Assembly: GCA_934162205.1 (NCBI GenBank)
Contig: CAKPIA010000006.1
Coordinates: forward strand, 11,882 to 75,881
Length of the DNA stretch: 64,000 bases
Reading direction: 5' to 3'
From: an uncultured Clostridia bacterium
GTDB lineage: Bacteria > Bacillota > Clostridia > TANB77 > CAG-508
Shown here: positions 33,192 to 64,000 of the stretch, one piece after another
How positions within the stretch are numbered: position 1 is the first letter of the stretch
Layout: each line of letters opens with the position of its first letter
Translations under genes and position numbers: made by a program
Notes under the pieces: model-generated
Told to the model about the DNA's origin: nothing
Seen by the model: the letters and a program-made list of their open reading frames with translations, nothing else
Database searches by the model: none

Positions 33192-34979
33192 ATGGAAGAA
33201 GAAAAAAGTAATAATAAAGGTAAAATTATAGGAATAGTTATAATAGCATTAATTGCAATAGTTGCATTTTGTTGTGGATACTACTACTATAAGTCAAATG
33301 ATTCAAAAACTGTGTTTGTAAGTGCAATAAATAAAGGAATAGATAAATATGAAGAAAACATTTCTAAAACATGTAAAACACAAGATGTTACATTAAAATT
33401 AAGTGGAAATATTAATTCAGATAATGATGATGCGAAGAAGGTGGCAGAATATATAAATAAATCAGCTTTACAGTTAAATACGCAAATAGATTATGAAAAT
33501 AAAAATGCTTTAATAAAATTAGGTGTTGATTATGATAATGACAAATTAATAGGTGGAAGAGTGTATTATAATTCAAATGACAAGATGGCTTATGGATATA
33601 TTGAAGAATTATTTGATAAGTATTTTAAAATGGATTTAAGTTCATCTGATTATAACGAAATGAATGAGACATTTAATGATATATTTGAAACACAAAGTGA
33701 AATGAAATTAGGAGAGAAAGTATCTTTAAAAAAAGCTGTTAAAATATTAAAAGAAGAAATATCAGATAAACTTAACAAAGAATATTTTTCAAAGGAAAAT
33801 TGTAAAATTAATGTAGCTTCTAAAGAAGTAAAGGCTACAAAATTTAAATTAATTTTAACAGAAAAACAATTTGTGGAAATGCTTCAATCAATATGTAAAG
33901 AATTATCAGAAAATGATGATTTCTTAGAATGTTGGGAAGAAAAGGACAAAATAAAAGATGCTTTAGTACAAATGTCAAATCAATTGAATGAAACAGAAAA
34001 AAATGATGAAGTAAAAATTGAATTTAATATTTACAAAAAAGGTATATTAAATAAATTTGTTAAATTTGAAATTAATATGTATGAAGTAAATAATGAAGAT
34101 GAAAAAATTAGTTTTGACGTTGTAAAAGAAAACGATAAAAAATACTTATTTAATGCTAAATCAGAAATAGAAAAAGAAAATGTAGAATTTTCAGGAGATA
34201 TTAATATAGAAAAAATAGATTCTGATACATATAAATATGTTGTTGGATCAAACATACCTGAATTTGGAAACATTACTTTAAATATAGAAGTATCTAATAA
34301 ATTAAATGGAACAATTGAAAATGTAAATAAATCAGATGCTGTTTCATTAGAAGATTTAACAGAAGAGGAACAAGAAACAATATATAATAACTTACAGAGA
34401 ATGAAACTTTATGAGGTATTACAAAATATTTATAAAAATAATCCAATTGAAGATGTAAATACTGGTACAGATAACGACATTAATACAAATAAAGGCGAGA
34501 ATGAAATAACAACAACTACTAATACATCTAATCAAAGCATAAAAGATTATTCAGGAAAAATAGTAGTATCATATGGAGTTCCAGCAAATTTTGTTTTAGG
34601 AAATTATAGTGAGGATACATATAAAATATACAGAAATGAAAATAGTGACGTTAAGGTAACTGTAACTATGCAAAATAAAACTTTAGATGAATTTTCTAAA
34701 GAAATAGACAAAAATAAAGAATATTTTGAAGAAACAAAAGATTATACAGATGTAAAGGCTACAGATTTAGAAACTAAGAAAGTTAATAATAAAGATTTTA
34801 AAATAAGAACACTTTCTTATACTTATAAAAGTTCTATATCAAGTGAGTATGATATAAAATATAAAACTATGTACATTTATTATGATATAGATGGTGAGAA
34901 TTCATATAATGTAGAAATAGAAAATGCAGACAATATTACAGAAAACGAAATAAATCAATTTTTAAATATTACAAAATAG
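33192..34979 (+). CDS. hypothetical membrane-anchored protein (595 aa) inserted in the rml operon
   Basis: N-terminal TM IIGIVIIALIAIVAFCCGYYYY, then a long polar ectodomain with no motif I recognise. Gaps to flanking rml genes are under 40 nt, so it is co-transcribed. Confidence 0.65.
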   Translation: MEEEKSNNKGKIIGIVIIALIAIVAFCCGYYYYKSNDSKTVFVSAINKGIDKYEENISKTCKTQDVTLKLSGNINSDNDDAKKVAEYINKSALQLNTQIDYENKNALIKLGVDYDNDKLIGGRVYYNSNDKMAYGYIEELFDKYFKMDLSSSDYNEMNETFNDIFETQSEMKLGEKVSLKKAVKILKEEISDKLNKEYFSKENCKINVASKEVKATKFKLILTEKQFVEMLQSICKELSENDDFLECWEEKDKIKDALVQMSNQLNETEKNDEVKIEFNIYKKGILNKFVKFEINMYEVNNEDEKISFDVVKENDKKYLFNAKSEIEKENVEFSGDINIEKIDSDTYKYVVGSNIPEFGNITLNIEVSNKLNGTIENVNKSDAVSLEDLTEEEQETIYNNLQRMKLYEVLQNIYKNNPIEDVNTGTDNDINTNKGENEITTTTNTSNQSIKDYSGKIVVSYGVPANFVLGNYSEDTYKIYRNENSDVKVTVTMQNKTLDEFSKEIDKNKEYFEETKDYTDVKATDLETKKVNNKDFKIRTLSYTYKSSISSEYDIKYKTMYIYYDIDGENSYNVEIENADNITENEINQFLNITK

Positions 34980-36017: not shown

Positions 36018-37934
36018 TTATAAATTTTCATTTGGTCCAACCATAAACCATGGCCAATAATTTTCATATCCTTGAAATTGGTAAACTTCTGGAAGTTCAT
36101 CATATGTTTTAAAGAAATAATTATATGATGTACTTTTTTTAGTACGATCTGCTGAATGTCTATCTAATGAAGCATCAAAAATATATTCTGTACCATTAAT
36201 ATTTATTACTGTCCAAGTATGTGCTGTATAACCTCCACCAGAAGCTCTAGTTTGACCAGTAGGACAATATGCATTTAATCCCATAACTCTACATATTCCA
36301 GTAAATGTACCTGCATAGTTTTTGCAATTATAACCATCTTTATGATACATATGTTGAACTAAATATTTATACATTGTTTTTACTTTAGTGTATGTAGACA
36401 TATTTGAGTTTGTATTTTTATTAATAAGTTTCTTATAATAATTATAATAATTTACAAGTGAAGAATTTTTAAAATCTTTATCTGGAGATAATGTGGTTTT
36501 GTTTAATTGTTGTTGTCTGTTTCCAGTTATAGCTGATTTTATTTCAGAATATTGTCCATGTAATTCTTTTCCGCTTCTATTTTTGTATGTTCTAATACGA
36601 TAAAAATATACTTTACCTTGACTTAACTTATAATCTTTGTAACTTGTTTTTTTAGAAGAAACAGTTGCAATTTTTGAGTACTTTCCATTTTGTGATGTTG
36701 CTCTATATATTTTATAACCTTTTATTTCATTTACTTTTTTCCATTTTAATTTAATATAATTACCAGTATAAGTTACATTTTTTAGATTTGTTTGAGCTAA
36801 TGCTTCTTTTGCTTTTATATCAGTAAAATTACCATAAACTCTTCCAACTGACGTATCTGAATAAGCTCTAATTTTATAATAATATTTAGTAAAGTTTTTA
36901 ATTTTTTTATCAGTGTATTTGCAATTATTTTGACCTTTTATAGTTTTAATTCTAACATATTTTCCATTTTTGTTTGTTGATCTAAATATTTGATATGCAG
37001 TAGCACCATTTACTTTGTCCCAACTTAAATAAGTTCTATCATTTCCACTTGATAAATTATAATTTACGCCTTGAACAAATATTATACTAGAAATAGAAGA
37101 GTAATTACTGTATATTTTTGTTCCATTTACATATTTATAAGAACGAACTTTATAATAATATGTTTTTCCACTAGTAGCAGGTGTTATATCTATATAAGAC
37201 AAATCTTTTTTTGAATGATATGCTATGACTTTTTCTTGTTTATTTGTTGAAGTATATCTACAAATTTCATATCCATCTACTTCTAAAGATATTTTTTTCC
37301 AAGATATTTTTATTCCATTTGTTTTTAGCGTTGTAGATATTTTTGTTACTTTGGGTAAAATAACATTGTATGATATACTTTTATATCCATAAAATTCAGA
37401 ATTAGGAGCTCCTTCAAGAGAAATGTATGCTGTTCCTACTGGAGTACCAGATGAATAAGATGGATAATTAATTATATAATCTTTTCCTTCTTTTAATGTT
37501 TTTCCTTTATATGTTACTTTAAAGTTTTTAGGTTTAATTTCTTTACCAGTATATTCTTGATCGGGTATAGCTGAAACATTTACATTATAAAGATTATATT
37601 TACAAATTACATAATATACATATTTTGTTCCTGTGTAATTTCCTTTTCCTTTTATAGTTATTTTTTTTGAAGTACCAATATTAATATTGTCTTCGTATGT
37701 AACAGTATAGTCTTTTCCTAATTTTAGTTTTCTATATGGGTTATTTCTTATTAGTTCAACTTTTGGTTTTATTTCTTTTCCTGTATACTCAAAAATGTTT
37801 TTTTCAATAAATGCATAATAATTAGAAGAAGTAATATTTTCTTTATTGCTAGCATTTGATGGAATAGCCAAAGCCATAAGTAAAATTCCAAAAGCTAAAA
37901 TAATAGAAATAAACAATTTTTTACTAACTTTCAT
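36018..37934 (-). CDS. secreted multi-domain protein: Ig-like repeats, three Fn3-like domains and a C-terminal transglutaminase-like cysteine-peptidase domain
   Basis: Signal peptide. Repeated YTGKEIKPK...GKDYT(V/I) units. Fn3-like segments (ISWKK..GYEICRY, LSWDKVNGATAYQIFRS, LKWKKVNEIKGYKIYRA). C-terminal Cys/His/Asp triad layout (NCKNYAG ... YTAHTW ... IFDAS). Strong AAGGGGGA RBS. Confidence 0.75.
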   Translation of the reverse strand: MKVSKKLFISIILAFGILLMALAIPSNASNKENITSSNYYAFIEKNIFEYTGKEIKPKVELIRNNPYRKLKLGKDYTVTYEDNINIGTSKKITIKGKGNYTGTKYVYYVICKYNLYNVNVSAIPDQEYTGKEIKPKNFKVTYKGKTLKEGKDYIINYPSYSSGTPVGTAYISLEGAPNSEFYGYKSISYNVILPKVTKISTTLKTNGIKISWKKISLEVDGYEICRYTSTNKQEKVIAYHSKKDLSYIDITPATSGKTYYYKVRSYKYVNGTKIYSNYSSISSIIFVQGVNYNLSSGNDRTYLSWDKVNGATAYQIFRSTNKNGKYVRIKTIKGQNNCKYTDKKIKNFTKYYYKIRAYSDTSVGRVYGNFTDIKAKEALAQTNLKNVTYTGNYIKLKWKKVNEIKGYKIYRATSQNGKYSKIATVSSKKTSYKDYKLSQGKVYFYRIRTYKNRSGKELHGQYSEIKSAITGNRQQQLNKTTLSPDKDFKNSSLVNYYNYYKKLINKNTNSNMSTYTKVKTMYKYLVQHMYHKDGYNCKNYAGTFTGICRVMGLNAYCPTGQTRASGGGYTAHTWTVININGTEYIFDASLDRHSADRTKKSTSYNYFFKTYDELPEVYQFQGYENYWPWFMVGPNENL

Positions 37935-51422: not shown

Positions 51423-52883
51423 ATGAAAATAAAGCAAACTAAAGGTATTACATTAATAGCATTAGTAATAACAATTATAATATTATTAATACTAGCAGGA
51501 GTAACAATAACGATGTTGACAGGAGATAATGGAATACTAAAACAAGCAACAAATGCAAGAGAAACAAATAGTAAAGCAGAATTTGAAGAACAAGTAAAAT
51601 TAGCAGTAATAGCATCAAGAGTAAATGATACAGCAAGTATAGATTTAAAAGCATTAGATGAAGAATTAAATAAAATAAGTGGAACAATAATAACAAAATC
51701 AGCAGATAATAATTTACCATGGACAGTAAAAAAAGGAAGTTATGAAGTAACAATAACAGCAGATGGAACAATAACATCAAACACAACAGGAAAAGATGAA
51801 CCAGTTGTTGAATCAGAAGTTGTAAAACAAGCGAAATCAGCAATGCCAGAAGGAGCATCAATAGACGCAACTACAAATGAAAACACAGGAATAGTAATGA
51901 TAGATAGTAATCAAAATGAATGGGTATGGATAGAAGTACCACCAACAGTATTTACAACTGCAAAAAATAGTACAGATTATGATAATATAAAAGCAGATTT
52001 AATAGCATATGCAAGTGATTATAGGGAAAGTTATACAGATAAGTGGTATGCTATGGATGGAGAAACATTAGTAACAGCGAGTACAGAGGGATTAACAGAA
52101 GCACAAAAATTACTAAATAATGGATGTGGATTAACATATAATGAATATAATACAAATTATAATAAAATGTTAAGTAGCATATATAAAAATAAGGGATTTT
52201 ATATAGGGAGATATGAAGCTGGAATAGCAGGTAGTGATGAGAATACAAGCTTAGCAAGATATAGTAGAACAGAAATAACAAGCAACACACCAAAAGCTGT
52301 AAGCAGAAAAGATATGATACCATATAATTTTGTGACTTGTAGTGATGCACAACAATTAGCAAATGGAATGAGTACAGGAAATAAAACAAGTAGTTTAATG
52401 TATGGAATCCAATGGAATTTAGTATGTAAGTTTTTAGAAGTAAAAGGTAATTGGGATACAACTGAGAATACAGCACAATATTATATAAAACAAAATAGTA
52501 CAAGTTGGGGAAATTATGCTAATAGTAGTATAACATTATCAAGAGGAAAATATAATATAAATCCAAGTTTATCATCAAGCATATGGACACCATTTGGTAC
52601 AGATACATTAAATTATGTAACATCAAGTAAAACCAATAGCAGTACATCATACTACCAATTATTAACAACAGGAGCAAGTGAAGATACTAACAAAATGAAT
52701 ATATATGATTTTGCTGGAAATGAATATGAGTGGATATTAGAGACTACTGCCAACACCTACAATCCTTGTAACGTTAGGGGAGGTAGTTGCAACAACGGTG
52801 GCAACAATCCAGCTTCTTGTTGCAATGCCAGTAGGACGACTAACAGCAATTGCGTCATTGGACTACGTTCCTCACTTTATTAG
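51423..52883 (+). CDS. pilin-like N-terminus fused to an FGE/SUMF1-like domain, with Cys-rich C-terminal tail
   Basis: N-terminus MKIKQTKG/ITLIALVITIIILLILAGV resembles a class-III (prepilin) signal (G-hydrophobic-T-L-I-x-L), but with Ala where the conserved Glu5 would be. C-terminal half matches the FGE-sulfatase fold signatures (YGIQWNLVCKF; FAGNEYEWI; NVRGGSCNNGG; NCVIGLRSS). Tail has six Cys. Confidence 0.7.
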   Translation: MKIKQTKGITLIALVITIIILLILAGVTITMLTGDNGILKQATNARETNSKAEFEEQVKLAVIASRVNDTASIDLKALDEELNKISGTIITKSADNNLPWTVKKGSYEVTITADGTITSNTTGKDEPVVESEVVKQAKSAMPEGASIDATTNENTGIVMIDSNQNEWVWIEVPPTVFTTAKNSTDYDNIKADLIAYASDYRESYTDKWYAMDGETLVTASTEGLTEAQKLLNNGCGLTYNEYNTNYNKMLSSIYKNKGFYIGRYEAGIAGSDENTSLARYSRTEITSNTPKAVSRKDMIPYNFVTCSDAQQLANGMSTGNKTSSLMYGIQWNLVCKFLEVKGNWDTTENTAQYYIKQNSTSWGNYANSSITLSRGKYNINPSLSSSIWTPFGTDTLNYVTSSKTNSSTSYYQLLTTGASEDTNKMNIYDFAGNEYEWILETTANTYNPCNVRGGSCNNGGNNPASCCNASRTTNSNCVIGLRSSLY

Positions 52884-54688: not shown

Positions 54689-54717
54689 TTGACAAGACAG
54701 TAATAAAATGGTATAAT
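54689..54717 (+). promoter_or_regulatory. sigma-A-type promoter TTGACA-17-TATAAT (TG-extended) overlapping a TGTCA-N5-TGACA palindrome
   Basis: Perfect consensus hexamers with 17-nt spacer. TSS predicted about 25 nt upstream of the ATG at 54749. Confidence 0.55.
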
Positions 54718-54748
54718 GAAGAGGTGCTTTCAAAAAAAGGAGGAAAAT

Positions 54749-55495
54749 ATGAAAGAAAATAATAATACTAAACTAAGAATTGGACAAATAATATATGTAA
54801 GTTTAGCAATAGTTTTTTTAACAATATTTATAACAATAAACAATTTAAATAACCAAGAAATAGAAGTAGCTGATAAAACAGTAAATAATGAAATAGTAGA
54901 AGAAACAAATAAAGTAGAAGTAGCAGAACAAAGCAAAGAAACTAGTAGTAGAAGTACAATAAGAGAAAAAAGTGCAACAATAACAAGCAGATCTTCATCA
55001 AGTATTAGAGAAGCTGTATCAGAAGAAAAATATGTATCATTAGATGAAGTATCTATATCAAGAAATATGGATTTAACAGAAAGAACAGGATTATCAAAAG
55101 AAGATTTTAAAACATTAGTAGCAAATACAAAACAAGACACAACAAAGTTCTTCTATAATAATAGTGATACAATATATGACTTATGTAAAAAATATGAATT
55201 AAATGAAATATTTTTCTGTGGTTTAATAGCTGGTGAATCAGGATGGAATATAGCATCTAATCACAGAAATACTCATAACTATATAAGCTTAATGTCAAAT
55301 GGTAAATTATTAAGATTTGCAACTGTTGAAGAAGGATTAGAAAAAGCGGCTAGTACTCTTCACAATAAATATTTATCTACAAGTGGTAGATTTTATGCAG
55401 GTAAAACATTAGATGGTGTTAAAAAAAGATTTTGTCCAGCATCATCAACTTGGACAAATTTAATATATAAATGTATGAGTCAAATGGTAAATTAG
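54749..55495 (+). CDS. membrane-anchored glucosaminidase-domain protein (FlgJ/LytD-like N-acetylglucosaminidase fold)
   Basis: TM near the N-terminus. C-terminal GESGWNIASNHRNTHNYISLMS ... FATVEEGLEKAASTL resembles the glucosaminidase (ESGWG...NLFGIK) signature. Start placed downstream of the predicted TSS. Confidence 0.6.
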   Translation: MKENNNTKLRIGQIIYVSLAIVFLTIFITINNLNNQEIEVADKTVNNEIVEETNKVEVAEQSKETSSRSTIREKSATITSRSSSSIREAVSEEKYVSLDEVSISRNMDLTERTGLSKEDFKTLVANTKQDTTKFFYNNSDTIYDLCKKYELNEIFFCGLIAGESGWNIASNHRNTHNYISLMSNGKLLRFATVEEGLEKAASTLHNKYLSTSGRFYAGKTLDGVKKRFCPASSTWTNLIYKCMSQMVN

Positions 55496-55619: not shown

Positions 55620-57956
55620 ATGAAAGATTTAAAAGATATGTCTATTGGTGAAGTTTTAGAAAAAATAGGAATATTTGCAAGCAATATTGATTTTCAAATT
55701 TTTATTAAAGATGAACAATTAATTGAGGAAATTAATAATCTTTTTTCTCAAAAAAGACATACTACTAAAATGGATTATATTACTAATTTTATAAAAGAAA
55801 ATGAAAAAAATATAGATATTGAAAAATTTGTTTTGACACAGCTATATAGAATGGAAACAGTAAAAAGAGAAATGAAAAAAGAAAATAAAAGATTTGAGAT
55901 AAAACAAGTTGGAGAAAAGGTTTCTGTTCCTGAAGAAAGTATAGAAAGAAAGATGAATATAGCAAAAGAACTTTTAAAAAACTATAAAGGTAGTATATTA
56001 ATCTTAGATGAAAACAATAAAGAACAAATTGTAAATATGGATATTTTGAATAATGGAAAAACTTCTCAAAAAAATACTCATAAATTACAAAAACTTGATG
56101 AAAATGAAAGTTTAGATTTGATTTGTTCAACTTTAAGTTGGGAAGATATTCCAGATTTGGTTTCATCAAATGATCCTAATTTTTCAGAATATTTAATAGA
56201 CTATACTGTACAAAATACTGTTAATAATACTTTACCTACATATTATAATTGTAGTGAACAAGAAATAGAAAAGCATATGCAAACACCAGAGTACAGAAAA
56301 GAATTTTATAAGCGATTAAAAGAAACATTTAAAGAATATTCAAAGTTTATACAGGTTGATAAAATGATGGCTATAGGAATTTATAGAAACTTAAAGTATT
56401 TAGATGTTAAAGAGATTGAAGGAAATATGTGCAAATTAATTATAGAACAATTAAAAGAAATTTATAATCAAATTGATCCAAAAACAAAAACATCAAAAAG
56501 TAAGTTTAAAATTTTAGAAGATACAGATAGCCAAGAAAAAATAAGTATTTTTCCAAAAGAGTTAAAGAAAATGTTAGATGAAAACTTTATAGATAATAAG
56601 TTTATAGGGAAAAATACAATAAAAGCTATGAAAAGAGAAATATTGGAATATGAGGTTCCATTAACAGAATATGATCCAATAGTACTAAAACTATTAGAAA
56701 TTAATATGGATGAATTAATGCAAATATTAAATAATCCATCAAACTTTGAGTATTTAATGCAATATGAAATGATAAATGATGAGGTACTAGAATATGTATT
56801 AAATACAAAAAATGATATGCCAGTAAAGATATATGAGCAATTATTAAATGGTGGAATGATTGATAAACAATATATATTAGACTTATATTCAGATGGTATT
56901 ATTACTTTAGAACAAATAAAAGAGTTAAATGAATTTTCTGAATTACATATAGAAGAAATTGTTCAAGAAGAAGAAATGATAAGATTATATAAAGAATTTT
57001 ATATGTACGGAAAAGATGAAGAAACATTTAATAGTTATATGCAATTATATAAAGAATTAAGAGTTAAAGGTAAGGATATATCAGAAAAAAGAGAAAATGG
57101 AAATAGATTGGTTGAAGAACTTGGAGAAGATTTTGAAGAAGAGGATTTAAAACAAATGTATAAATTAGGAATTATTCCGGTTGATACTGCAATAGAGTGG
57201 GGAGGAGATTCAATAACTCAAGATATGTTTAACAAAGGAATATTAAAACCTATAGATGCTAAAAGATTATATAAAGAAAATGTTTTAAATTTAGATATGA
57301 TAAAACAAGTATTAAGATCAAAAGAAATATCAGATGAAGATAAATTAGCTTTAATTGGAAGTACTTTTGATGATGAACAAGATTTTGAAATGAAAATGGA
57401 ATTAATGCAATATTTAAATTTAGTTACAGACGAAAATAGTTCAAATAGTAAAGGCCAAAAACGTTTAAAAAGAAATAACAATTCTATAATAGATGTTAAA
57501 AATGCATATATTACAGATCCATTTGCAAGATGGCAATTAATATCTTTATTAGATAATGAATATTCACAAGAAGTTTTAAGAGATGGATATATTATATTTG
57601 AATTACCAAATATAAATGATGGTACTGTAATAATAGAAAAGATGTTTAAAAAATCTCAAAATAGAGTTGTTCCTTCTTATGGAAATGCTACATATATATT
57701 ATCTAAAAAACAATTTGATAAATCAAAAAATTATATAACTGATGAAACCTTAGGTGGTAAAGTTATAAATTTAGGAGAATTAGCAGAAGTAAGAGAAGCT
57801 AGAAATGCTGATAGATTGAATCATTCTAGTAGATGGGGAAGTAATATAAAGGATTATTTTGAAGTTGGAAAAGACCAAAGTAGATATACTGAAGAGCAAA
57901 TACAAAAAATAGATAAAACAATAGAAAGTATAGAAAATTCTAGAAGATTAAAATAG
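55620..57956 (+). CDS. hypothetical large acidic protein (778 aa), first gene of a two-gene operon
   Basis: GGAG RBS. No TM segment, no P-loop, no nuclease or peptidase motif that I can recognise. E/K-rich with helical character. Confidence 0.7.
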   Translation: MKDLKDMSIGEVLEKIGIFASNIDFQIFIKDEQLIEEINNLFSQKRHTTKMDYITNFIKENEKNIDIEKFVLTQLYRMETVKREMKKENKRFEIKQVGEKVSVPEESIERKMNIAKELLKNYKGSILILDENNKEQIVNMDILNNGKTSQKNTHKLQKLDENESLDLICSTLSWEDIPDLVSSNDPNFSEYLIDYTVQNTVNNTLPTYYNCSEQEIEKHMQTPEYRKEFYKRLKETFKEYSKFIQVDKMMAIGIYRNLKYLDVKEIEGNMCKLIIEQLKEIYNQIDPKTKTSKSKFKILEDTDSQEKISIFPKELKKMLDENFIDNKFIGKNTIKAMKREILEYEVPLTEYDPIVLKLLEINMDELMQILNNPSNFEYLMQYEMINDEVLEYVLNTKNDMPVKIYEQLLNGGMIDKQYILDLYSDGIITLEQIKELNEFSELHIEEIVQEEEMIRLYKEFYMYGKDEETFNSYMQLYKELRVKGKDISEKRENGNRLVEELGEDFEEEDLKQMYKLGIIPVDTAIEWGGDSITQDMFNKGILKPIDAKRLYKENVLNLDMIKQVLRSKEISDEDKLALIGSTFDDEQDFEMKMELMQYLNLVTDENSSNSKGQKRLKRNNNSIIDVKNAYITDPFARWQLISLLDNEYSQEVLRDGYIIFELPNINDGTVIIEKMFKKSQNRVVPSYGNATYILSKKQFDKSKNYITDETLGGKVINLGELAEVREARNADRLNHSSRWGSNIKDYFEVGKDQSRYTEEQIQKIDKTIESIENSRRLK

Positions 57957-58842: not shown

Positions 58843-58871
58843 TTGACAAAAGCAAACAAATATTCTATAAT
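58843..58871 (+). promoter_or_regulatory. sigma-A-type promoter TTGACA-17-TATAAT upstream of dinB
   Basis: Perfect consensus hexamers, 17-nt spacer, 17 nt upstream of the dinB start codon. Confidence 0.55.
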
Positions 58872-58888
58872 AATTTTAGGTGATAATT

Positions 58889-60103
58889 ATGGAAAGACAA
58901 ATATTACATGTAGATGTTAATAATGCCTTTTTAAGTTGGACTGCTGTAGAAAAACTAAAAAACGGAGAAGAAATAGATATAAGAAATATACCTTCTGTTA
59001 TAGGTGGAGATGAACAAAAACGTTCTGGAATAGTTTTAGCTAAAAGTATGAAAGCAAAAGAATGTGGAATAGTAACTGGCGAAACATTATATCAAGCAAG
59101 AAAAAAATGTCCAAATTTACAAGTATTTTCAAGTGAGTTTAAAGTATATAGAAAATATTCAAATCTATTATATAATTTGTTATTAGAATATACCGATAAA
59201 ATAGAAAGATATAGTATAGATGAATGTTTTTTGGATATGACTAATTTTTTGCTAAATAGTACATTATTAGAGAAAGCAAAAGAAATTAGTAAAAGAGTAA
59301 AAGAAGAATTAGGATTTACAGTAAATATAGGAGTAGCACATAATAAGTTATTGGCTAAAATGGCATCAGATTTCGAAAAGCCTGATAAAATACATACATT
59401 GTTTGAAAATGAAATAGAAAGTAAAATGTGGGCACTTCCAGTAAAAGAATTATTTATGTTAGGAAGAAAAACAGCACCAAAATTATACAATATGAGAATA
59501 AAAACAATAGGTGATTTAGCAAAAACAGACAAAACAATATTAATTAAATTGTTTGGAAAACATGGTAATATGATGTGGGAGTATGCAAATGGAATAGATA
59601 CAACACCTGTAAAATATATAAAGGAAGATCCTAAAAGTATAGGAAATTCTGTTACGTTACCAAGAGATATTTATAAAATGGAAGAACTAAATGAAATTCT
59701 TCTTACATTAGTAGAACAGGTATCATACAGACTTAGAAAGTATAATATGGTTGCTACAACTGTTAGTGTACAACTAAGAACAAAAGATTTTGAAGATTAT
59801 TCTCATCAAAAAAAGTTAAGTACAACAACTTCTAATACTAAAGAAATATATATAAAATCAAAAGAATTGTTACAAGAAATGTATAAAAATCAAAAACCAA
59901 TAAGATTAGTTGGTTTAAGAGTAGATGGACTAATAAAAAAGGATGAACTGCAAATATCTTTATTTGATAATAATAACAATAAAAAACAAGACAAATTGGA
60001 TAGTGTAATAGATAATTTAAATGAAAAATATGGATATAATTCAATTACTAGAGCAGGAAAACTTAATATAGAAGAAATAGTAAAAATGAACCCTAAATTA
60101 TAA
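58889..60103 (+). CDS. dinB: DNA polymerase IV (Y-family translesion polymerase)
   Basis: ILHVDVNNAFLS palm start. SIDECFLDMT catalytic Asp/Glu. Little-finger domain. About 404 aa. Confidence 0.85.
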   Translation: MERQILHVDVNNAFLSWTAVEKLKNGEEIDIRNIPSVIGGDEQKRSGIVLAKSMKAKECGIVTGETLYQARKKCPNLQVFSSEFKVYRKYSNLLYNLLLEYTDKIERYSIDECFLDMTNFLLNSTLLEKAKEISKRVKEELGFTVNIGVAHNKLLAKMASDFEKPDKIHTLFENEIESKMWALPVKELFMLGRKTAPKLYNMRIKTIGDLAKTDKTILIKLFGKHGNMMWEYANGIDTTPVKYIKEDPKSIGNSVTLPRDIYKMEELNEILLTLVEQVSYRLRKYNMVATTVSVQLRTKDFEDYSHQKKLSTTTSNTKEIYIKSKELLQEMYKNQKPIRLVGLRVDGLIKKDELQISLFDNNNNKKQDKLDSVIDNLNEKYGYNSITRAGKLNIEEIVKMNPKL

Positions 60104-62477: not shown

Positions 62478-63002
62478 TTAATTTTTACTCTTTATAAGTT
62501 TATACTTAAACCAATAATTTTTCTTTAGAAATTTTGAAAATTCATCAGCTGTTCCATAGTAGAACCCTTTTTTGTCTACTAGAAGGGAATTTTCATCATC
62601 TACATATAAATAAAAGAAATCAGTTGTTTCAAATATTTTATATAGCTTTGTATATTTTACTTTATCATATTTTAAATTGTTATATATTTTAAAATAATTT
62701 TTGCAAAATATAAATTTAAAAATTTTTTCATTTTGAATTTTATCGCTTTCAAAGTCTTTTTTTACCTTTAATGTCGGTTTTATTATTTTTAATACTAAAA
62801 ATAATGCTAGTAATATCATTGCTAAAAAAGCTTGTAAATAAAAATGATTAACAAAGTATAATATAATACATGTAAATAAAATCATACTCATAAATAAAAT
62901 ATAAAATGTATTTTTAAATCCAAATTTATTACTATGAAATTCTAGAAATTTTTTATAACTATTTTCAGTATATTTAGTTTTATTTTTAAATAATATTTTC
63001 AT
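62478..63002 (-). CDS. YcxB-like membrane protein
   Basis: 174 aa with two central TM helices flanked by soluble halves, the YcxB-like topology. No catalytic motif. Confidence 0.5.
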   Translation of the reverse strand: MKILFKNKTKYTENSYKKFLEFHSNKFGFKNTFYILFMSMILFTCIILYFVNHFYLQAFLAMILLALFLVLKIIKPTLKVKKDFESDKIQNEKIFKFIFCKNYFKIYNNLKYDKVKYTKLYKIFETTDFFYLYVDDENSLLVDKKGFYYGTADEFSKFLKKNYWFKYKLIKSKN

Positions 63003-63082: not shown

Positions 63083-63140
63083 TTGACATAGAATATATGT
63101 TCGTATATAATAATTTCAACAAGCGAACATATATTCTATG
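63083..63140 (+). promoter_or_regulatory. consensus sigma-A promoter (TTGACA-17-TATAAT) embedded in a perfect 17-bp inverted repeat carrying two LexA/Cheo-box-like half-palindromes
   Basis: -35 at 63083-63088, -10 at 63106-63111. Inverted repeat CATAGAATATATGTTCG (63087-63103) / CGAACATATATTCTATG (63124-63140). Each arm contains a near-match to CGAAC-N4-GTTCG. Confidence 0.6.
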
Positions 63141-63150
63141 GAGGTAAAAT

Positions 63151-63456
63151 ATGAAAATAAAAATAGTTAATGTAAAAAAATTTTTTTTAAATTGTACAAT
63201 ATTGTTAGGAATTATAGTAATGTGTGGAGTTATATTCACAAATAAATCTTATTCTAAAACAGAAGAAGTATATAAAAATGAAATAATAGTGCAAGGTGAA
63301 ACATTATGGGGAATAGCTAAAAACGAAAAAAAAAATAATGATTATTATAAGGATAAAGATGTTAGATATATTGTATATGATTTACAACAAATTAATAATT
63401 TATCAAATACTAATTTATTAGATGGACAAGAAATTATTATTCCTACTTATAAATAA
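63151..63456 (+). CDS. small TM + LysM-domain protein (YneA-like SOS cell-division inhibitor candidate)
   Basis: N-terminal TM (CTILLGIIVMCGVIF). C-terminal LysM (IIVQGETLWGIAKNE ... LLDGQEIIIP). GGAGG RBS. Confidence 0.65.
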   Translation: MKIKIVNVKKFFLNCTILLGIIVMCGVIFTNKSYSKTEEVYKNEIIVQGETLWGIAKNEKKNNDYYKDKDVRYIVYDLQQINNLSNTNLLDGQEIIIPTYK

Positions 63457-63489
63457 AAGAAACTTATAATAAATAAGCTTCTTTTATTT

Positions 63490-64000
63490 TTATAAATTTG
63501 ATAATGGATTACTTTCAACAGCATTTCTAACTTGTTCATTATTTACATGGGTATATATTTCTGTTGTAGAAATACTTTCATGTCCGAGTAATTCTTGTAA
63601 AGCTCTTATATCAACATTACCATACTGATACATAAGAGTGGCTGCTGTATGTCTTAATTTATGTACAGAATATCTTTGGCTATCAAGTCCAGCTTCTTGT
63701 AACTCTTTATATATAATGTGCTGAACAGTTCTATTGCTAATACGTTCTTTTCTTTCACTTAAGAATAAAGCTTTATCAGAATTTTTAGAATCTTTTTTTG
63801 CATTTTTAGGTCTAACTTGTAAATAATTGTTTATTGCTCTCATACAAGCACTATTTAAATAAATTGTTCTTTCTTTGTTCCCTTTACCAATAACAGTCAT
63901 CTTACATTCACTAAAATCAATATTATTTACATTGATTCCAACAAGTTCAGATAAACGTATACCGCAATTTAAGAAAAGAGTTGTAATTGCATAATCTCTC
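63490..64000 (-). CDS. tyrosine site-specific recombinase, XerD/XerC-like (N-terminus lies beyond the window end)
   Basis: RDYAITTLFLNCGIRLSELVGINVNNIDF...VIGKGNKERTIYLN, HKLRHTAATLMYQ and LLGHESISTTEIYTHV catalytic R-H-R-Y region. The reading frame stays open to the window edge. Confidence 0.8.
   Translation of the reverse strand, partial: RDYAITTLFLNCGIRLSELVGINVNNIDFSECKMTVIGKGNKERTIYLNSACMRAINNYLQVRPKNAKKDSKNSDKALFLSERKERISNRTVQHIIYKELQEAGLDSQRYSVHKLRHTAATLMYQYGNVDIRALQELLGHESISTTEIYTHVNNEQVRNAVESNPLSNL

Follow-up and report, generated by a model that had tools for sequence, protein, structure and literature searches.

LexA-controlled inhibitors of the YneA type, which combine a transmembrane (TM) helix with a LysM domain, are already established in Bacillus and in Listeria, where yneA lies divergent from lexA, and one is predicted beside lexA in Clostridium thermocellum. 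The LexA box of Bacillus subtilis is GAACN4GTTC, and ChiZ of Mycobacterium tuberculosis (Rv2719c) is a small SOS-induced membrane protein with LysM that inhibits division. In B. subtilis, three LexA sites lie upstream of lexA and yneA is divergent from the same non-coding region. In C. thermocellum, the LysM gene Clo1313_1450 is divergent from lexA, has LexA sites upstream that were obtained by DNA affinity purification sequencing (DAP-seq) and have a B. subtilis-like motif, and shares with lexA a non-coding region containing multiple operators; lexA adjoins the yneA/LysM gene in Bacillus, C. thermocellum and other orthologue-bearing organisms (PMC8457756). Staphylococcus aureus SosA, Corynebacterium DivS and Caulobacter SidA are likewise small membrane division inhibitors induced in the SOS response (PMC6851548, PMC13396833), the mechanism of YneA has been described (PMC13396833), and a lexA mutant of Clostridioides difficile is filamentous (PMC4689574). 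Here, we compare with these systems a gene at 63151-63456 of a 64,000-nucleotide stretch of an uncultured Clostridia bacterium (contig CAKPIA010000006.1, assembly GCA_934162205.1), the whole of which is referred to as the window.

Based on sequence comparisons, this gene is probably that of a YneA-type SOS inhibitor of cell division, in an uncultured gut Clostridia lineage with 25% G+C (24.7% in the window), a reading to which we assign a probability of about 0.72. The locus has a consensus promoter with two operator-like boxes, an open reading frame (ORF) with a TM segment, a LysM domain and similarity to the YneA hidden Markov model (HMM), an operator layout that recurs in homologs, and a motif in common with the promoter of dinB. 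An earlier note on this DNA had proposed a LexA-like double operator over the promoter of a YneA-type SOS gene, and the comparison of operators, the dinB promoter and the HMM searches support that proposal.

A consensus promoter overlapped by two operator-like boxes

The promoter region and the gene that follows it (here, the LysM gene) contain the following features:

63083-63088, plus strand: -35 hexamer TTGACA, part of a 12/12 promoter match in the scan
63106-63111, plus strand: -10 hexamer TATAAT, 12/12 in the same scan, with a 17-nt spacer to the -35
63087-63140, unstranded: perfect 17-nt inverted repeat, formed by the two boxes and 3 flanking nt each
63090-63103, unstranded: operator box 1, AGAATATATGTTCG, in the -35/-10 spacer, 2 mismatches to CGAACN4GTTCG
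63124-63137, unstranded: operator box 2, CGAACATATATTCT, 2 mismatches to CGAACN4GTTCG
63140-63144, plus strand: ribosome-binding site GGAGG, 6 nt before the ATG, GGAG-type in homologs
63151-63456, plus strand: coding sequence (CDS) of a YneA-like protein of 101 aa, with a Lys-rich N-terminus, a TM helix at ~8-32 and LysM at 39-100
63447-63495, unstranded: AT-rich hairpin followed by a U-run, -11.7 kcal/mol, z -4.75

Perfect TTGACA-N17-TATAAT sites occur only three times in the 64 kb, at 63083, 54689 and 58843 (dinB). The arms of the inverted repeat, CATAGAATATATGTTCG (63087-63103) and CGAACATATATTCTATG (63124-63140), are 100% complementary and 20 nt apart. No other perfect inverted repeat of at least 17 nt with a loop of up to 40 nt exists in the window, and none appeared in 30 first-order Markov simulations. 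The earlier note was right in describing a perfect promoter before the 63151 gene (63083-63111 scores 12/12) set inside a perfect 17-bp inverted repeat, with arm sequences and coordinates exact, and in each arm a 14-mer two mismatches away from the Cheo box CGAACN4GTTCG. Within the window, four sites match this box with at most two mismatches, and the two besides boxes 1 and 2 lie inside ORFs. The 12-mer cores, GAATATATGTTC and GAACATATATTC, each have one mismatch to GAAC-N4-GTTC.

A position weight matrix (PWM) trained solely on LysM-gene promoters gave box 1 as the top hit of the window (17.3 bits) and box 2 as the second (16.3 bits). The strong half-site of box 1, GTTCG, adjoins the -10, and the centre of box 2 is 34 bp from that of box 1. 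Box 2 begins 13 nt past the -10, which corresponds to ~+6 to +19 of the predicted start site, and therefore lies just downstream of +1. The placement suggested before thus stands for the box in the -35/-10 spacer and is corrected for the other, which had been put at +1 itself. At the other end of the gene, none of 200 shuffled sequences was as stable as the hairpin at 63447-63495, which likely terminates transcription from both sides, that of the LysM gene and that of the recombinase gene converging on it. Given this terminator-like hairpin after the stop codon and the convergent orientation of the next gene, the LysM gene looks monocistronic.

Conservation of the putative operators across homologous loci

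A protein search and a genome scan yielded 58 loci, all from metagenome-assembled genomes (MAGs) of uncultured Clostridia from human, rabbit, mouse, goat, sheep and chicken guts. A promoter of the TTGACA-17-TATAAT type was found in 56 of 59 homologous loci, with the identical -35 hexamer TTGACA in nearly all 56. Counting as a box any site with at most three mismatches to CGAACN4GTTCG, the spacer box is present in all 56 homolog promoters and the second box, 3' of the -10, in 55 of them. The modal offset between the two box starts, equal to the centre-to-centre spacing, is 34 bp (range 29-36). In addition, 29 of the 56 promoters carry a third box upstream of the -35, CGAACATTTTTTC(A/T) (e.g., L015 at 3967 and L018 at 5906), whose distance to the spacer box is mostly 29-31 bp (29-40). 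The window promoter has no third box; instead, its two boxes form the perfect 17-nt repeat.

When symmetrised, the 119 family sites give the consensus CGAAC-N4-GTTCG, in which A3, A4, T11 and T12 of the 14-mer are invariant. The 4-nt spacers vary by lineage, and the side that bears the perfect CGAAC switches, as in TCGAACATAATTTCA...CAAACAATAATTCG in L005/L013. Since the half-sites are kept while spacers and orientation vary, these sites are best explained as targets of a dimeric protein, that is, as repressor operators, and not as an RNA structure. The 3-nt flank that extends the repeat to 17 nt is not kept either, and the sister contig L001 reads TTGACAC there, which leaves a shorter repeat. 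Outside the LysM-gene promoters, only 12 PWM hits of at least 11 bits were found in 731 kb of loci.

Two other explanations of the inverted repeat were rejected. The first, that it folds as an RNA hairpin in the 5' leader, acting as an attenuator or sequestering the ribosome-binding site, would make sense of the perfect 17-nt arms and of a 3' arm that runs 1 nt into the GGAGG. However, the 5' arm, placed between the -35 and the -10, precedes the predicted start site and is not part of the mRNA, which excludes such a hairpin. Moreover, the upstream gene is on the opposite strand, and the homologs keep the half-sites but not the complementarity of the arms. We consider this explanation barely credible. 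The second, a recombination site or invertible promoter switch of the adjacent tyrosine recombinase, draws on the fact that inverted repeats flanking a promoter are a hallmark of invertons, and on the recombinase gene lying convergent just downstream in 56 of 66 loci. It is nonetheless very improbable, because the 20 bp between the arms are far too short to flip (~100 bp or more would be needed) and neither arm complementarity nor the repeat past the LexA half-sites is conserved. In addition, the box occurs singly in the dinB promoters, beside which no recombinase gene was seen, and the 71-89% identity of the recombinase suggests a housekeeping Xer gene.

A separate recurrent site, CGAACATTTGTT, was noticed in seven loci (L010 at 11191, L034 at 8427, L035 at 5132, L044 at 11776, L049 at 10631, L050 at 11899 and L055 at 9980), where the invariant strong half-box CGAACATTTGT(T) is embedded in long AT-rich stretches. 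These sites are ~2-6 kb 3' of the LysM gene, with no ORF of at least 70 aa nearby; in two loci, they come soon after the recombinase gene. No Rfam family was hit at gathering thresholds in four loci holding the site, a small-ORF listing and an alignment of the seven copies gave no clear gene or structure, and the site is absent near the window's own locus. It could represent an unannotated LexA-controlled small gene or RNA.

The same motif in the promoter of dinB

A canonical SOS gene is present on the same strand, with a promoter of the same kind:

58843-58871, plus strand: dinB promoter TTGACA-17-TATAAT, perfect, with one Cheo-like box
58853-58866: dinB box CAAACAAATATTCT, in the spacer and overlapping the -10, PWM 12.2 bits
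58889-60103, plus strand: dinB, encoding DNA polymerase IV of the Y-family (IMS and IMS_C; NCBIfam DNA polymerase IV, E 1e-101)

The earlier note had located dinB 3 kb upstream of the LysM gene, in agreement with a CDS ending at 60103. The dinB box is the third-best PWM hit of the window and the best outside the LysM promoter; those ranked below it are inside genes or reach at most 7.1 bits. The first set of loci was uninformative on the conservation of this box, as dinB was found there only in near-identical strains. A metagenome scan then provided 80 dinB loci, 79 of which have 67-72% protein identity and one 97%. Of the 64 upstream regions of dinB that are distinct, 63 keep (C/A)(G/A)AAC-N4-(G/A)TT(C/T)T at the same place, where it overlaps the -10 of a TTGACA-17-TATAAT promoter, and the DNA farther upstream is unrelated. 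Across ~414 kb of dinB loci, all 40 PWM hits of at least 12.5 bits fall at dinB promoters. Because the motif is shared by both promoters, one operator type appears to control dinB and the LysM gene across the lineage, and dinB is a putative second member of the same regulon.

No further SOS gene was recognised nearby. dinB is the only canonical one recognised in the window, with recA, lexA and uvrBA not among its genes, and a Pfam search of the ten largest window ORFs (PriA, ArgRS, FTHFS and others, and four with no hit) returned no SOS gene besides dinB. The motifs GAACnnnnGTTC, GAACnnnnGTTT and GAACnnnnnTTC of clostridial LexA have been used to predict operators in C. difficile, part of which were stably bound by C. 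difficile LexA in surface plasmon resonance (SPR), and the window core GAACATATATTC fits GAACnnnnnTTC exactly (PMC4234289).

It is conceivable that a repressor other than LexA, lineage-specific or HdiR-like, binds these boxes and that their likeness to the Cheo box is a partial convergence. The degenerate half-site in each box could be taken in this sense, as could the fact that tblastn located a lexA gene nowhere in the fetched DNA: LexA from E. coli or B. subtilis and RecA from E. coli had no homolog in the window or the yneA-type loci, and the two E. coli queries had none in the dinB loci. Against this, the 119-site consensus is the Gram-positive LexA box itself, the motif is common to a canonical SOS gene, dinB, across the lineage, and the sites fit clostridial LexA motifs, some of which C. 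difficile LexA bound in SPR (PMC4234289). A different repressor is thus improbable, and LexA is the preferred candidate.

The 101-aa LysM protein

The architecture first suggested for the product, 101 aa with an N-terminal TM segment and a C-terminal LysM domain, was recovered by hydropathy, Pfam and structure prediction. A single hydrophobic segment is found at residues ~11-30, after the N-terminal MKIKIVNVKK with its four Lys, and Pfam LysM (PF01476) scores 26.7 bits versus a cut-off of 20.9. The AlphaFold 2 (AF2) model, with a mean predicted local distance difference test (pLDDT) value of 85.9, has a helix at 8-32 and, after it, a beta-alpha-alpha-beta domain, and nearly all top PDB matches in a fold search of the modelled domain are LysM domains, with probability 1.0. 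The YneA search proposed in the earlier note returned NF010723, "cell division suppressor protein YneA", as the sole significant NCBIfam family (E 4.4e-13), the match spanning profile positions 7-86 of 87, though below the curated cut-off.

The 45 family members that were aligned share 39-93% identity with the window protein, and all match the YneA HMM (best E 5.5e-16); SafA and generic LysM models match weakly in 2-10 of the 45. G49, T51 and W53, within the G-[D/E]-T-L-W motif, are invariant in the family, and I97 is conserved in more than 90%. For B. subtilis YneA, the LysM peptidoglycan-binding residues D46, T47 and I81 are required for activity (PMC13396833). An insert between the two LysM helices, N63-x-Y65-Y66-K67-x-K69-D70-x-R72 (window 63337-63366), is invariant in 45/45 members and more strongly conserved than the TM helix. 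By profile search, the family comprises at least 1,402 clusters at E <=0.001.

Several points weigh against the assignment as a YneA-type inhibitor. The NF010723 equivalog score of 49 bits is lower than the curated cut-off of 60, and the Asp of the GDTLW motif, present in most relatives, is Glu here (G49-E50-T51). The TM helix is followed by a conserved S-Y-S, which could be a signal-peptidase site releasing the LysM domain. Where family members bear a name in public records, it is no more specific than "LysM peptidoglycan-binding domain-containing protein", "LysM repeat protein" or "hypothetical protein". On the regulatory side, one half-site of each box is degenerate (AGAAT instead of CGAAC), and lexA is missing from the surrounding 6-10 kb in all of the ~60 loci.

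Some of these points would also suit a protein that is regulated by LexA in the SOS response and has another role in the cell wall, such as remodelling, a spore or cortex function, or a secreted peptidoglycan-binding factor. The sub-cut-off YneA score and the possible cleavage site after the TM helix are of this type, as are the unexplained invariant NxYYKxKDxR insert and the spore-photoproduct-lyase (SPL) gene next to the LysM gene in one sub-lineage (see below). A precedent for the topology exists in B. subtilis SpoIIIM, which resembles YneA in having a TM segment and a LysM domain, and chimeras with its TM or LysM domain do not block division (PMC13396833). However, among NCBIfam families, only YneA matches strongly and over nearly its full length, SafA and others being far weaker, size and topology fit YneA, and a consensus vegetative promoter under two or three operators is what would be expected for a toxic SOS gene. 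Such a different cell-wall role is therefore considered rather unlikely, and a YneA-type division inhibitor remains the preferred assignment.

Gene neighbourhood

The gene order around the locus is dinB, guaA (minus strand), a flavoprotein gene, a YcxB-like gene (minus strand), the LysM gene and an Xer-like tyrosine recombinase gene (minus strand). The immediate neighbours of the LysM gene are:

62478-63002, minus strand: YcxB-like gene, left neighbour of the LysM promoter
63490 to beyond 64000, minus strand: Xer-like tyrosine recombinase (Pfam and NCBIfam), convergent with the LysM gene

The window's right end falls inside the recombinase gene. Beyond this point, contig L147, whose 101-aa protein is identical to that of the window, has a HAD/VanW gene, one for a dCMP deaminase and one with Polysacc_synt, MatE and cytidylate-kinase hits; no lexA is found over its next 10 kb. 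The absence of lexA beside the gene, pointed out previously, is thus true on the left and extends on the right over the 10 kb of this contig. The recombinase gene, the convergent neighbour in most fetched loci, is 71-89% identical across loci in which the LysM protein is 39-65% identical. From this higher conservation, the recombinase looks like a housekeeping Xer enzyme whose gene belongs to a conserved neighbourhood, along with guaA and the flavoprotein gene. Together with the presence of the recombinase gene in 56/66 loci, this places the LysM gene in a conserved chromosomal neighbourhood and not in a mobile element.

In one sub-lineage, whose LysM protein is ~50-57% identical to that of the window, an SPL gene follows 50 nt 3' of the LysM gene on the same strand (L005 10001-11360, and L006-L008 and L013). 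There, the double operator may serve a DNA-repair operon made up of the LysM and SPL genes.

Elsewhere in the window, the third perfect TTGACA-17-TATAAT promoter (54689-54751) has no Cheo-like box. Its gene likely starts at the ATG at 54749, after AAGGAGG, as the mechanical ORF start at 54716 falls within the promoter. Four ORFs of 486-778 aa (36018-37934 on the minus strand, 55620-57956, 33192-34979 and 51423-52883) matched no Pfam family at E <=1e-5.

Proposed mechanism

By analogy with Bacillus, we infer that LexA is the protein that binds the boxes, that DNA damage induces the gene, and that its product targets FtsW and blocks division. In uninduced cells, a LexA dimer would occupy each Cheo-type box, the first between the -35 and the -10 and the second a little past the start site. 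With both boxes occupied, the consensus sigma-A promoter would be occluded and a potentially toxic gene kept silent. Upon DNA damage, following the Bacillus paradigm, RecA-stimulated self-cleavage of LexA would free the promoter and lead to a monocistronic mRNA. The 101-aa protein would then insert into the membrane with its N-terminus in the cytoplasm and the LysM domain outside. If it works as B. subtilis YneA does, its TM helix would be directed at the septal peptidoglycan synthase FtsW, and its LysM domain would attach to peptidoglycan and hold up the building of the septal wall for as long as repair takes. A YneA-type inhibitor is expected, when overexpressed, to stop septal peptidoglycan synthesis by way of TM7 of FtsW, and to be turned over by proteases. 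The dinB gene, 4 kb upstream, would be co-regulated via the single box in its own promoter.

A more speculative extension, to which we give only a small chance, is that these genes form a distinct, lexA-unlinked branch of TM plus LysM SOS effectors, apparently confined to uncultured low-G+C gut Clostridia. The NxYYKxKDxR insert may then alter the target or mode of action. For example, the protein may act on another component of the divisome or sporulation septum, or may be released as a soluble peptidoglycan-binding factor. In the same scenario, the AT-rich, ORF-free DNA of these lineages may contain an uncharacterised element controlled by a LexA box, for which the recurrent CGAACATTTGTT site of seven loci is a candidate.

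Implications

No new mechanism is revealed by this locus, and its functional annotation is unsurprising to a specialist. Its interest is that a large unnamed LysM family of uncultured gut Clostridia, with at least 1,400 clusters, receives a testable function. It also provides a lead for the clostridial SOS division block, for which we found in the literature no experimentally identified effector, only the in silico and DAP-seq candidate of C. thermocellum. The comparison suggests that the regulatory link between YneA and LexA can outlast the loss of physical linkage to lexA. Finally, the lineage-specific LexA-box matrix, cross-validated on dinB, can be used to search for SOS regulons in these MAGs.

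Comparison with known systems

Several described systems share parts of this arrangement. Like B. subtilis YneA (NF010723, with orthologues in Listeria and B. megaterium), the window protein has ~100 aa, an N-terminal TM helix and a predicted extracellular LysM domain, and its promoter is overlapped by multiple GAAC-N4-GTTC boxes, here putative LexA sites. Unlike yneA, the gene is not divergently paired with lexA and looks monocistronic, with no yneB-ynzC partners. In addition, its predicted product carries the lineage-specific invariant NxYYKxKDxR insert and has an HMM score below the equivalog cut-off (49 vs 60 bits). Clo1313_1450 of C. thermocellum is, similarly, a clostridial LysM protein with a YneA-like domain structure and LexA-type sites upstream. 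However, its upstream region is shared with a divergent lexA, whereas here none is found in at least 10 kb on either side.

As described, SosA, ChiZ, DivS and SidA follow the same logic as that proposed here: LexA represses a small membrane protein that, once made, stops late division or the synthesis of the septal wall. SosA, SidA and DivS differ from the window protein in having no LysM domain. The operators themselves resemble those of clostridial LexA (C. difficile, C. perfringens and C. acetobutylicum), as the core GAACATATATTC fits GAACnnnnnTTC and the dinB-type sites of the relatives fit GAACnnnnGTTT and GAACnnnnGTTC (PMC4234289). They differ from these in that the two inverted boxes form a perfect 17-nt repeat around the -10, with the strong half-sites facing it. 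Taken together, these sequence comparisons indicate that the window locus is very probably a divergent, lexA-unlinked member of the YneA group that works like YneA.

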